Origin: Roseovarius sp.
GTDB lineage: Bacteria; Pseudomonadota; Alphaproteobacteria; Rhodobacterales; Rhodobacteraceae
Length of the DNA: 64,000 nucleotides
Assembly (NCBI GenBank): GCA_040222155.1
Contig: JAVKDQ010000074.1
Span: forward strand, 1,946 to 65,945
Direction: 5' to 3'
Notes under the pieces: model-generated
Database searches by the model: none
Told to the model about the DNA's origin: nothing
What the model saw: the letters and a program-made list of their open reading frames with translations, nothing else
Program-made: the position numbers and the translations under genes
In this document: piece by piece, positions 10,903-35,788 of the stretch
Numbering within the stretch: the stretch's first letter is position 1
How the letters are laid out: every line of letters starts with the position of its first letter

Positions 10903-10929
10903 GTAGGGTGGGTTTCAAACCCACCCTAC
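10903..10929. repeat. REP element GTAGGGTGGGTTTCAAACCCACCCTAC
   Basis: GTAG tetranucleotide plus palindrome; same core at 35725-35779; related to the REPs inside the RAYT gene. Confidence 0.85.
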
Positions 10930-16716: not shown

Positions 16717-16898
16717 TCTTCGAAAATTCTGGGGATACCTGCCGGAAAATCCTGTAATTCTGCCAGCTTGCGAGAACTATCGCGGCAGCGTCTTCGCCCC
16801 CGCCGACGATCGGCGCTTTTCTGCGCCTGCAAACGCGTTCAGGCGGCTTTCGAGGGTTTTTCACCGCACATCCGCCATCCTTCCGGCGGTTGAAACCC

Positions 16899-17075
16899 TC
16901 AGTCGCGCATCCTCCGCGCCACCGCCCAGGACAGGGGGAAGGCCACGGCGAACCCCACGACAACGGCAATCAGAAAGGCGCCGGGCGTATCCTGCCCCAA
17001 GATGAGCGCAACGATCACCGCACTACCGGCAAGGGTGGACCCGATGAAGAGATGCAGAACGAATATGAGCCACAT
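16899..17075 (-). CDS. small two-TM membrane protein
   Basis: MWLIFVLHLFIGSTLAGSAVIVALILG...GFAVAFPLSWAVARRMRD; I recall this as a conserved Rhodobacterales small-protein pattern. Confidence 0.7.
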   Translation of the reverse strand: MWLIFVLHLFIGSTLAGSAVIVALILGQDTPGAFLIAVVVGFAVAFPLSWAVARRMRD

Positions 17076-17237
17076 GGCAGGCCTCCGGTGCACGCGTCTT
17101 TGCCTCTGCGCAACCTGTTACCGCAGAGCGGCGCGGCGCGGCTTGATCTGGGTCAGCGGAGGGCAATTCGGCGGGCACCGTCTCATGATCCTTTCGGATT
17201 TAACCCCGCCTTTACCATCCTGTCGTCAGAATGGGTC

Positions 17238-17798
17238 ATGGCACGATATCTCAGGCCCCGGGTCGCCGGGGCAACCATCTTCTTCTCCGTCCATCTCGCC
17301 CGGCGCGGGTCGACCCTGCTCACCGACGAGATCGGCGCATTGCGCGCCGCTGTCCGGCAAACGCGGGCGGAGCGGCCTTTCGAGATCGACGCCTGGGTGG
17401 TCCTGCCGGATCATCTTCATGCCCTCTGGTCCCTGCCGGAGGGCGATGCGGATTACGGCACGCGATGGGGTGCGATCACGGCCCGCTTCACGCGAAGCCT
17501 GCGCGACCGATGTAGGGTGGGGTACAACCCCACCCTCGCCAAGGCCGAAGGGCACACGGTGGGGTGGAACCCCACCCTACACCGCTCGGCGAGCAAGGTC
17601 GCGAAAGGCGACGCGGGGATATGGCAAAGGCGGTTCTGGGAGCACCACATCAGAGACGAGGCGGATTACCGCGCGCACCTGCGGCATTGCTGGGAGAACC
17701 CGGTGAAACATGGGCTCGTCAAACGGCCGGAGGAGTGGCTCTATTCCAGCGTGCACCGCGATGCGCTCCTCGCGCGGGAGAGGGAACCGGCCGAGTGA
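17238..17798 (+). mobile_element. REP-associated tyrosine transposase (RAYT, IS200/Y1 HUH family), probably catalytically impaired
   Basis: MARYLRP...FFSV, PFEIDAWVVLPDHLHALW (HUH), IWQRRFWEHHIRD, NPVKHGLV, WLYSSVHRD align with E. coli TnpA-REP; the Tyr115-equivalent is His (CAT at 17685-17687). Confidence 0.9.
17512..17580. repeat. inverted REP doublet (REPIN) inside the RAYT CDS
   Basis: GTAGGGTGGGGTACAACCCCACC at 17512 and GGTGGGGTGGAACCCCACCCTAC ending at 17580; span 69 bp = 23 codons. Confidence 0.8.
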
Positions 17799-17846
17799 TA
17801 CTCCCTGGAAAGGCCGGGCAAGCCCCACCTCACAAGGCGTCTCGCC

Positions 17847-19646
17847 CTAGTTGTCCATCTTCAAGGCCGAGATGAAGGCTTCCTGCGGGATCTCCACCTT
17901 GCCGAACTGGCGCATCTTCTTCTTGCCCGCCTTCTGCTTCTCGAGCAGCTTGCGCTTCCGTGTCGCGTCGCCGCCATAGCATTTCGCTGTCACGTCCTTG
18001 CGCAGCGCGGAGAGCGTCTCCCGCGCGATCACCTTGCCGCCGATCGCCGCCTGGATCGGGATCTTGAACATGTGGCGCGGGATCAGATCCTTCAGCTTTT
18101 CGCACATCGCCCGCCCACGCATCTCGGCGCGGTCGCGATGGACCATCATCGAAAGCGCGTCCACGGGCTCGTCATTCACGAGGATCTGCATCTTCACAAG
18201 GTTGTCGGCCCGGTAGCCCTCGAGCTGGTAGTCAAAGCTTGCATAGCCCTTGGTGACGGATTTCAGCCGGTCGTAGAAATCGAACACCACCTCGTTGAGC
18301 GGCAGATCGTACACCGCCATGGCCCGCCCGCCCACATAGGTGAGATCGAGCTGGATGCCGCGCCGATCCTGGCAGAGTTTGAGCACATCGCCGAGAAACT
18401 CATCCGGCACGAGGATGGTGGCCTTGATCCGCGGCTCCTCCACGTGATCCACGTAGGTGAGGTCGGGCATGTCGGCGGGGTTGTGCAGATCGCGCTTGAC
18501 ACCGTCCTTCATGTAGATGTGGTAGATCACCGAGGGCGCGGTGGTGATGAGCTCGATATCGTATTCCCGCTCGATCCGGTCGCGCACCACTTCGAGATGA
18601 AGCAGGCCCAGAAAGCCACAGCGGAAGCCGAACCCCAGCGCTGCGGAGCTTTCCATCTCGTAGGTGAAGGAGGCATCGTTGAGCGCCAGTTTCTCGATGG
18701 CATCGCGCAGGTCTTCGAACTCGGCACTGTCGACAGGAAACAGCCCGCAGAAGACCACCGGGATGGAGGGCTTGAATCCGGGCAGCGCCTTCGCGCAGGG
18801 GCGCTTCTCATGGGTGATCGTATCGCCGACCTTGGTGTCGCGCACCTGTTTGATCGACGCGGTGATGAAGCCGATCTCGCCGGGCCCGAGTTCATCCACC
18901 ACCGTCATCTCGGGGCGGAAGACACCGATCCGGTCGATATTGTAGGTGGCGCCCGTCTGCATCATGCGGATGCGGTCGCCCTTCTTCATAACGCCGTCCA
19001 TGATGCGTACGAGCACCACGACGCCGAGATAGAGGTCATATTTGCTGTCCACCAGCATCGCCTTGAGCGGTGCGTTGGCATCGCCCTTGGGGGCGGGCAG
19101 GTGGGCAATGATCGCTTCGAGCACTTCGCGGATGCCCTGCCCCGTCTTCGCGGAAACCGGGATCGCGCCGGAGGCATCGATGCCGATCACCTCTTCGATC
19201 TGCTCGGCCACGCGGCTCACATCAGAGGCGGGAAGGTCGATCTTGTTGAGCACCGGGATGAGCTCGTGATCGGCGTCGATCGCCTGGTAGACATTGGCGA
19301 GGGTCTGCGCCTCGACCCCTTGCGTGCTGTCAACCACCAGGAGCGAGCCCTCGACCGCGCGCATGGAGCGCGAAACCTCGTAGGCAAAGTCCACATGGCC
19401 GGGAGTGTCGATGAGGTTGAGCACATATTGCTCGCCATCCTCGGCGGTGTAGACGATCCGCACCGTGTTCGCCTTGATCGTGATGCCGCGCTCGCGCTCG
19501 ATATCCATCGAGTCGAGCAACTGCTCCTTCATGTCCCGCTCGGCAACCGTGTCCGTCATCTGGATCAGCCGGTCGGCCAAGGTGGATTTGCCGTGGTCGA
19601 TATGGGCCACGATCGAGAAATTGCGGATATGCGAGAGCGGTGTCAT
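17847..19646 (-). CDS. lepA: elongation factor 4
   Basis: [44 protein letters not shown] motifs. Confidence 0.98.
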
Positions 19647-35687: not shown

Positions 35688-35724
35688 GGATCGGCTGCGC
35701 TTTCAGGTTCGATCAGGCTGGCAA

Positions 35725-35779
35725 GGTGGGTTTGAAACCCACCCTACAGGCGGTTCGTAGGGTGGGTTTCAAACCCACC
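35725..35779. repeat. REP doublet inside the cox operon (GTAG ends facing inward)
   Basis: GGTGGGTTTGAAACCCACCCTAC (35725-35747) and GTAGGGTGGGTTTCAAACCCACC (35757-35779). Confidence 0.85.
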
Positions 35780-35788
35780 CACAGGGCG

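Follow-up and report, generated by a model that had tools for sequence, protein, structure and literature searches.

Why should the gene for an enzyme that belongs with repetitive extragenic palindromes (REPs) carry a pair of such palindromes inside its own coding sequence? The question is raised by a stretch of 64,000 nucleotides from a Roseovarius sp. contig (GenBank assembly GCA_040222155.1, contig JAVKDQ010000074.1, positions 1,946 to 65,945), here called the window, in which a gene for a REP-associated tyrosine transposase (RAYT, or TnpAREP) encloses a 69-bp doublet of REPs at 17512-17580. A first-pass annotation, made from the sequence of the window alone, had described this doublet as translated in frame within the RAYT, and the follow-up analysis bears it out: two hairpins with GTAG feet are present, and they match the REP pattern far above shuffled sequence. 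The element is very probably ancient and constrained at the level of DNA. To judge from alignments of related genes, it is kept as a hairpin with a GTAG foot and not as a peptide. The gene and its relevant parts are as follows.

17238-17798, plus strand: RAYT / TnpAREP gene, 186 aa plus a TGA stop, E. coli-like (subclass 2.2 / Bertels group 2)
17412-17420, plus strand: codons of the HUH motif, H59-L60-H61 (CAT CTT CAT), read from the sequence and aligned to HMH of the E. coli TnpAREP structure 4ER8
17512-17536, plus strand: internal REP1, a GTAG foot followed by AGGGTGGGGT/ACA/ACCCCACCCT with a 10-bp stem, encoding (C)RVGYNPT(L)
17537-17557, plus strand: spacer of the doublet, 21 nt, encoding (L)AKAEGHT
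17558-17580, minus strand: internal REP2, in the sense direction GGTGGGGT-GGA-ACCCCACC-CTAC, with the GTAGG foot and hairpin on the antisense strand, encoding VGWNPTL(H)
17685-17687, plus strand: His150 (CAT) at the position of the catalytic tyrosine (E. coli Y115), from the 4ER8 alignment

Both internal units consist of a 5' GTAG foot followed by a G+C-rich hairpin. The feet face outward and the units are inverted relative to each other (head-to-head), which is the arrangement of a REPIN (a REP doublet forming a hairpin). In one respect the doublet departs from the definition of a REP, namely that it is not extragenic and lies in frame within a coding sequence. The REP hairpin pattern has five matches in the window compared to 0.06 expected from shuffles, and the pattern of a GTAG-footed half-site has six compared to 0.72 expected. 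The inverted arms of the doublet extend over 31 nt with 87% complementarity, and the doublet as a whole folds into one long hairpin. Relative to shuffles, the DNA of the 93-nt doublet region folds with a z of -4.1 on the plus strand and -6.9 on the minus strand. A search of Rfam over 16800-18200 returned chance-level matches only.

The doublet had been placed in a loop between the RWxxIxxxF and IWQRRFWEH motifs that is short in E. coli, and this placement holds. The alignment to 4ER8 is broken exactly at the doublet, where residues 88-123 of the window RAYT stand against one E. coli residue. The distance from RWxxIKxxF to WQRRFW is 44 residues in the window RAYT compared to 21-22 in insertion-free relatives; the insertion thus amounts to a net 22 codons (66 bp). 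The 69-bp element itself runs from the second base of the C92 codon to the first base of the H115 codon. In an AlphaFold2 (AF2) model the doublet falls between alphaC (residues 73-90) and beta4 (134-137). Loop residues 105-115 have a predicted local distance difference test score (pLDDT) below 50 compared to above 90 for the core in the model built from 120 sequences, among which VGWNPTL is almost invariant; this model was used instead of one built from 25 sequences (pLDDT 62). On the model, the 22 encoded residues are probably a tolerated, disordered loop. The loop that carries the 'extra domain' of subclass 2.2 adjoins the REP-hairpin contact residues of 4ER8 (PMC6006769).

Is the element constrained as DNA or as a peptide? 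Nucleotide identities were compared as pairwise means among eight orthologues of the 44-residue type.

REP2: 97.8%
REP1: 77.9%
Spacer: 59.5%
Loop immediately before the doublet: 61.4%
Loop immediately after the doublet: 68.6%
Rest of the gene, all positions: 67.7%
Rest of the gene, third positions: 48.1%

The spacer diverges like ordinary coding sequence. This shows that the REPIN of the 44-residue clade is orthologous by descent; its arms alone are frozen, REP2 most of all. Where the amino acid of a column does not vary, the pairwise synonymous codon difference was 0.095 in REP2 compared to 0.53 elsewhere. The codons that spell the feet are rare ones: AGG, fixed in seven of seven orthologues, makes up 4.3% of the Arg codons in the genome, and CTA, invariant in every clade sequence read, makes up 1.3% of the Leu codons. 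In one orthologue (L084; loci are numbered with the prefix L), GGG changed to GGA and AAC to AAT at two synonymous sites that pair with each other, which is a compensatory exchange, and the GGGAT/ATCCC variant of this internal REP is also found in the flanking REP of that genome. Among 26 distinct 3' REPs, the arms of a locus formed 6.04 of 7 pairs with each other compared to 4.71 when arms were swapped among loci, and none of 2000 permutations reached the former value.

These values bear on the simplest alternative, that a REPIN landed by chance, in frame, in a permissive surface loop and was merely tolerated there. Such a neutral passenger is in keeping with a loop that is poorly structured and varies from 21 to 71 aa, with insertion-free orthologues that share the same locus, and with the decayed internal elements of L014, L043, L089 (REP1) and L095. 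It has been argued that inserts of this kind affect the protein little, and Quentin et al. read the cases of subclass 2.4 in this way (PMC6006769). However, a passenger is expected to diverge like the spacer or like third positions, and an identity as high as that of REP2, fixed rare codons and a compensatory synonymous pair are not what it predicts. Mere tolerance is thus considered quite unlikely.

The peptide, on the other hand, takes a different version in each lineage: RVGFHPT...VGWNPTL, RAGFTPP...GGVNPAL, RAGFSPP...AGLKPGL, RSGFTPT...VGENPDL, GRPAHPTL or GLAPTL. Every one of these versions is encoded by a perfect hairpin with a GTAG foot, and the internal stems read, by lineage, GGTGGGG/CCCCACC, GGCGGGG/CCCCGCC, GCCGGGG/CCCCGGC, GTCGGGG/CCCCGAC, GGCGGGC/GCCCGCC, GGTGGGTT/AACCCACC and GGTGGGCAG/CTGCCCACC. 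Because the peptide varies while the palindrome and its GTAG foot stay, with compensatory changes, a role at the level of nucleic acid is favoured. The first-pass annotation had guessed at such a role and had reasoned that a peptide preserved without its palindrome would speak against it; the alignment of Rhodobacterales RAYTs at the DNA level gave the reverse.

Could the encoded residues nevertheless act in the protein, as part of a REP-hairpin-binding surface beside the alphaC and loop contacts of 4ER8? The insertion does lie in the alphaC/beta4 'extra domain', which borders on the REP-recognition region (PMC6006769), VGWNPTL reaches a conservation of at least 90% in the set of 120 homologues, and the type of loop is correlated with the REP family. 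But the chemistry of the peptide shifts between lineages (W/V/L/E at one position and T/A/G/D at another) while the hairpin stays, synonymous sites are frozen, and the segment is the one with a pLDDT below 50. A function of the peptide itself is accordingly rated very unlikely.

How old is the element? The protein homologues sampled were the 120 closest clusters (59-79% identity; Roseovarius, Tateyamaria, Roseicyclus, Mesobacterium and others), 116 of which could be assessed. In all 116 the loop measures 25 aa or more, and VGWNPTL occurs in 106. Large contig scans gave mostly distant relatives among the matches listed, and close relatives were added singly. About 40 fetched Rhodobacterales loci carry the internal REP at the same codon, several of them at the same chromosomal site, convergent with lepA. 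Among the matches listed, 27 of 80 genome loci (44-63% identity) and 12 further metagenome loci have insertions that share both codon and frame (xGT AGG ... CTA Cxx); the other 53 genome loci, which include all beta- and gammaproteobacterial ones, have the baseline of 21-22 residues. The loops of insertion-free relatives yielded no remnant of a REP. The suggestion that a REPIN had hopped recently into its own mobiliser is not sustained, because the element occupies the same codon in 116 of 116 assessable clusters and a syntenic locus across genera.

Synteny was anchored on a neighbouring gene.

17847-19646, minus strand: lepA (EF4), convergent with the RAYT gene

A convergent lepA lies downstream of the RAYT gene in 16 loci, the window and 15 others. 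The lepA-adjacent genes include doublet-bearing ones (L083, L084, L086, L087, L088, L090, L002 and L011), one with a single REP (L001) and insertion-free ones (L018, L027, L047, L076, L077 and L038). The shared synteny implies a vertically inherited gene in which the internal REP was gained, lost or remodelled in place. The Rhodobacterales RAYT has two recurrent chromosomal homes, one convergent with lepA (the window, L084, L086-L088 and L090) and the other beside an ABC-F (double ABC_tran) gene (L081/L082, L085 and L089). A neighbour-joining tree of the loop-less core was too short and noisy, and leaves one insertion versus several undecided. The GC skew of the window and of the other loci is mixed as to which strand is the lagging-strand template.

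The two units of the doublet have not fared alike. REP2, with its GTAG-hairpin on the antisense strand, is the constant part of the element. Across loci, 36 perfect internal units are of the antisense type compared to 21 of the sense type, and the single-REP forms (L001, L015, L040, L060, L075, L110 and L119) have REP2 only. REP1 drifts: in L083 and L091 it has gone over to the GGTGGGTT subfamily, and in L084 and L089 it has decayed. The internal REPs of L004, L008 and L094 are separated by long spacers. The loop of REP2 is TCC on the antisense strand in 12 of 12 internal copies of the GGTGGGGT family, whereas external copies mostly have TTC. In the window the REP2 loop (17566-17568) is GGA in the sense direction and gives Trp. 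An external loop of TTC would read TGA in this frame; the internal REP2 is therefore a coding-compatible variant, and bears the trace of a dual constraint. Three unusual forms were also seen. In L036 there are three in-frame REPs. L093 carries only one hairpin, of the double-foot kind, such as deletion of the centre of a doublet would leave. The loop of L049 (10001-10669), at 71 residues, is expanded by low-complexity sequence (G/P/E/A) before a footless REP.

Do the internal REPs belong to the same families as the REPs outside the gene? The relevant sites of the window, all of them extragenic, are the following.

17812-17833, plus strand: decayed remnant of a 3' flanking REPIN, GGCCGGGCAAGCCCCACCTCAC; lepA-adjacent orthologues carry an intact REPIN there
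10903-10929, unstranded: 'double-foot' REP of a sister subfamily, GTAGGGTGGGTTTCAAACCCACCCTAC, a perfect 27-nt palindrome, intergenic
35724-35780, unstranded: REP pair of the GGTGGGTT subfamily with GTAG feet inward (tail-to-tail), intergenic

Across loci, the internal 8-nt stem is identical to an external REP stem of the same locus in 19 of 29 cases, compared to 4.7 expected and a maximum of 13 in 10,000 shuffles. Where the flanking arms are unlike each other (GGGCGGGC and GGCCGGGC, in L054, L025, L028 and L088), the same two arms are found internally. Between lineages the stems switch family (GGTGGGG, GGCGGGG, GTCGGGG, GCCGGGC), and the REPs flanking the gene switch with them. Stems of the internal type lie in the flanks of relatives, up to several kb away. 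In its behaviour the internal REP is thus that of a cognate site still in use.

The flanks are also tied to the end of the gene. Orthologues adjacent to lepA end in xxG-TAG, the stop codon being supplied by the GTAG foot of a flanking REPIN next to lepA; the window gene ends in TGA. The RAYT stop is the TAG of a downstream GTAG foot in 79 of 162 loci and in 36 of 48 insertion-bearing ones (L005, L007, L008, L015, L040, L054, L084, L086 and L087 are among the examples). The cognate flanks of the window RAYT consist of the decayed 3' remnant alone, whereas orthologues have intact flanking REPINs. The first-pass annotation had seen degenerate REPs on both sides of the gene. The downstream one stands, as this decayed remnant, but the upstream one, at 17195-17215, is a conserved box resembling TTAA-N7-TTAAC. 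It had also held that the best cognate sites are internal. Perfect extragenic REPs are in fact present in the window, at 10903-10929 and 35724-35780, though they are of the sister subfamily, written GGTGGGTTT/AAACCCACC. This subfamily accounts for three sites in the window, with 3 hairpins and 4 GTAG feet. Outside the gene, the 64-kb window has no copy of the GGTGGGGT type. Where a REP lies downstream, 7 of 31 insertion-bearing loci also have one upstream, compared to 32 of 45 insertion-free loci (p=5e-5, a difference confounded by phylogeny). RAYTs with a 21-residue loop (PxGxxRxSHxxR; the lepA-adjacent L018, L027 and L047) are flanked by a REP family with longer stems, GTAGGGTGCGTGC...GCACGCACC. 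The type of loop and the REP family seem to go together.

The same agreement between inside and outside would arise by concerted evolution without function, if internal REPs were overwritten or re-inserted from the REPs of the genome by RAYT-mediated strand transfer or short-tract gene conversion. Internal stems do track the flanking REP family of the genome, close protein relatives can have different REP families (L002 and L088 compared to the 44-aa type), internal copy number varies from 1 to 3 (L036, L093), and REP1 changed subfamily in the two loci named above. However, the spacer of the 44-aa clade is orthologous and diverges normally, which excludes replacement of the whole REPIN there, and each event would have to restore the same frame and codon. 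The loop of REP2 is always TCC despite the TTC that is commonest outside; selection against TGA could filter conversions. Overwriting without function is regarded as unlikely, if somewhat less so than the passenger.

A further alternative places the function in the transcript: the REPIN hairpin in the RAYT mRNA would throttle translation or shape decay, and so keep a genotoxic enzyme scarce. RNA of the 93-nt doublet region folds at -56.8 kcal/mol (z = -5.2), REP hairpins are known as stabilisers and attenuators of mRNA, and down-regulation of RAYTs by REP hairpins has been suggested by Di Nocera et al. (PMC3733652). An RNA hairpin has no need of a GTAG foot, yet the CTAC that contains the CTA codon is invariant. 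Moreover, the long hairpin is not conserved, as single-REP forms keep REP2 only and REP1 decays. An mRNA element therefore appears no likelier than a passenger, that is, improbable.

What of the enzyme itself? The open reading frame matches the NCBIfam model NF047646 (REP_Tyr_transpos) at 1.5e-46 (157.9 bits, cut-off 80) and the E. coli TnpAREP structure 4ER8 at 2.5e-39, with about 50% identity within aligned blocks. The AF2 model superposes on 4ER8 with a template modelling (TM) score of 0.80. A Pfam search with the protein gave no family at E<=0.01. In the E. coli enzyme the GTAG foot is contacted by W94, Q95, E100, H101 and R104 (PMC6006769), and the window RAYT keeps the equivalent residues W129, Q130, E135, H136 and R139. 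It shares with subclass 2.2 that its nearest relative is E. coli TnpAREP, that it has an extra segment between alphaC and beta4, and that it has a C-terminal extension with a conserved Ser, its WLYSSVHRD aligning to WPFSTFHRD of 4ER8. Subclass 2.4 differs in two points, a REP insertion between beta3 and alphaC and the lack of a C-terminal Ser extension; the window RAYT has the SS motif.

The catalytic position is Tyr in 106 of 116 close homologue clusters and in 151 of 156 loci. In the window RAYT it is His150, and the N/Q ligand, expected four residues after the Tyr, is present (N154). Residues other than Tyr (H, A, C, R or E) occupy this position in about 9% of the close homologue clusters, which suggests recurrent inactivation or a binding-only role. 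In the E. coli enzyme, Y115F is a catalytic mutant (PMC8266576). The window RAYT is thus probably an inactive member of the family, the rest of its fold and motifs being intact. Because His150 replaces the catalytic Tyr, a covalent intermediate is probably impossible, and cutting of its own gene by this copy, which had been among the first proposals for the locus, becomes improbable. With Tyr changed to His, the TAG-in-GTAG stop lost and the 3' REPIN decayed, the window copy appears to be on its way out.

How might an internal REP serve a RAYT? The RAYT would recognise the internal REP as a cognate site, and the internal REP would be a cis element of a 'REPtron', either a home site or an operator site on single-stranded DNA. 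Through it the activity or expression of the RAYT would be tied to its own gene, and it may stand in for the upstream flanking REP of canonical REPtrons; the scarcity of upstream REPs at insertion-bearing loci fits such a substitution over all loci, though not within the small lepA-adjacent subset. Taken by itself, recognition of the internal REP as a cis site is a serious possibility that falls somewhat short of even confidence; taken together with an ancient REPIN constrained as DNA, the combined reading is favoured by a narrow margin. A stronger version, put forward tentatively and judged doubtful, makes the 3' REP an obligatory 'home site', at which the RAYT would bind the antisense single strand of its own gene, tying expression or activity to replication or transcription and linking the recogniser with its recognition sequence.

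Several observations weigh against a recognised cis site. Its function is deduced from conservation alone, and the window RAYT lacks the catalytic Tyr. Some orthologues at the lepA site lack the insertion, so that a RAYT as such does not need the element. The extragenic REPs of the window belong to the sister subfamily GGTGGGTT and not to the internal one. In the lepA-adjacent subset, an upstream REP is present in 1 of 10 insertion-bearing compared to 2 of 6 insertion-free loci, which is not significant. The arm-swap, stem-shuffle and Fisher tests ignore phylogenetic relatedness. The loop boundaries differ between the RVGF...VGWNPTL architecture and the RAGF/RSGF architectures, and more than one insertion event may have occurred. 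Finally, the two metagenome runs found, both of low share and kept as contigs, yielded fragments that miss the doublet and no joints, and so carry no information on excision polymorphism or transcription.

The conserved box upstream of the gene may bear on when the RAYT is expressed.

17200-17215, plus strand: TTAA-N7-TTTAC box, CtrA-box-like and not a REP, 27-38 nt 5' of the ATG

In 67 of 158 RAYT loci TTAAC stands at position -27 or -28 relative to the ATG, compared to 4 in a control window. If one mismatch is allowed, 59 of 143 loci, mostly of Rhodobacterales, have the full box, and 0 of 15 loci named as non-Rhodobacterales. Its consensus across RAYT loci is TT(A/C)A-N7-TTAAC(C) at a fixed distance, and the CtrA consensus in roseobacter studies is TTAA-N7-TTAAC (PMC3692519, PMC4046655). 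This likeness might mean that RAYT expression is under the CtrA phosphorelay, and the fixed spacing of the box might mean that the RAYT transcript has a very short 5' leader or none.

REPs within a tnpAREP gene are already known. Quentin, Siguier, Chandler and Fichant (2018) described in-frame REPs within tnpAREP as 'a unique feature of subclass 2.4' (PMC6006769). In that subclass (Cyanobacteria and Bacteroidetes; Bertels group 4) the insertion lies in the beta3/alphaC loop and was read as peripheral and tolerated (PMC6006769), and the manual REPtron table of the same study contains no Rhodobacterales (PMC6006769). The present case is similar in that REPs of the cognate type lie within the RAYT gene, between the HUH and Tyr motifs, with the frame intact and with flanking REPs as well. 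It differs in its host, an E. coli-like subclass 2.2 RAYT of Rhodobacterales, and in its site, the alphaC/beta4 loop beside the hairpin-contact region. It also differs from the earlier report in the constraint at the DNA level and the covariation with flanking REPs. REP-in-tnpAREP is therefore not confined to subclass 2.4, and the host, the site, the evidence of selection on DNA and the covariation are what the sequence comparisons would add to the known case.

The canonical REPtron of E. coli (tnpAREP/yafM flanked by REP/BIME, where BIME is a bacterial interspersed mosaic element; 4ER8) has the same fold, the same HUH and GTAG contacts, and GTAG-footed hairpin REPs with the gene. In contrast to the Rhodobacterales RAYT, E. 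coli tnpAREP has no internal REP and a loop of 9 residues. The insertion-bearing Rhodobacterales genes depart from the canonical REPtron in that they usually lack an upstream REP and mostly place their TAG stop in the downstream GTAG foot, and the window copy departs from it further with its His for the catalytic Tyr. In-frame intragenic REPs have been described in unrelated genes (Di Nocera et al. 2013, PMC3733652). Like these and like Rickettsia palindromic elements (RPEs), in which singles or dimers encode 20-30 extra in-frame residues in loops of normal proteins, the window doublet is translated in a loop. However, intragenic REPs and RPEs were regarded as fortuitous, and their hosts (uvrA, recB, dnaE and others) are unrelated genes, whereas the window insert is in the gene of the REP's own enzyme and is conserved in nucleotide sequence across genera. 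In the IS200/IS605 elements, too, hairpins accompanied on one strand by a short guide or foot are recognised by a Y1 HUH enzyme. Their hairpins bound a mobile element that contains the gene, whereas here the hairpin pair lies within a single-copy, syntenic, vertically inherited coding sequence.

What does the doublet mean for RAYTs in general? One immediate consequence concerns annotation, as the odd conserved peptide VGWNPTL of Rhodobacterales 'transposases' is explained as translated REP2. The conservation of REP2 also pinpoints a specific 23-nt site and its strand. If an obligatory home site were true, the REP family would follow a co-evolving pair of enzyme and recognition sequence, and REPIN-RAYT systems would have a built-in module of self-recognition or autoregulation. 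The finding touches on what RAYTs do and on how populations of REPINs and a single-copy enzyme stay matched over millions of years. A cognate REP that is frozen at synonymous sites in the gene of its enzyme and that switches family with the REPs of the genome is a natural experiment on the coupling of REPINs and RAYTs.

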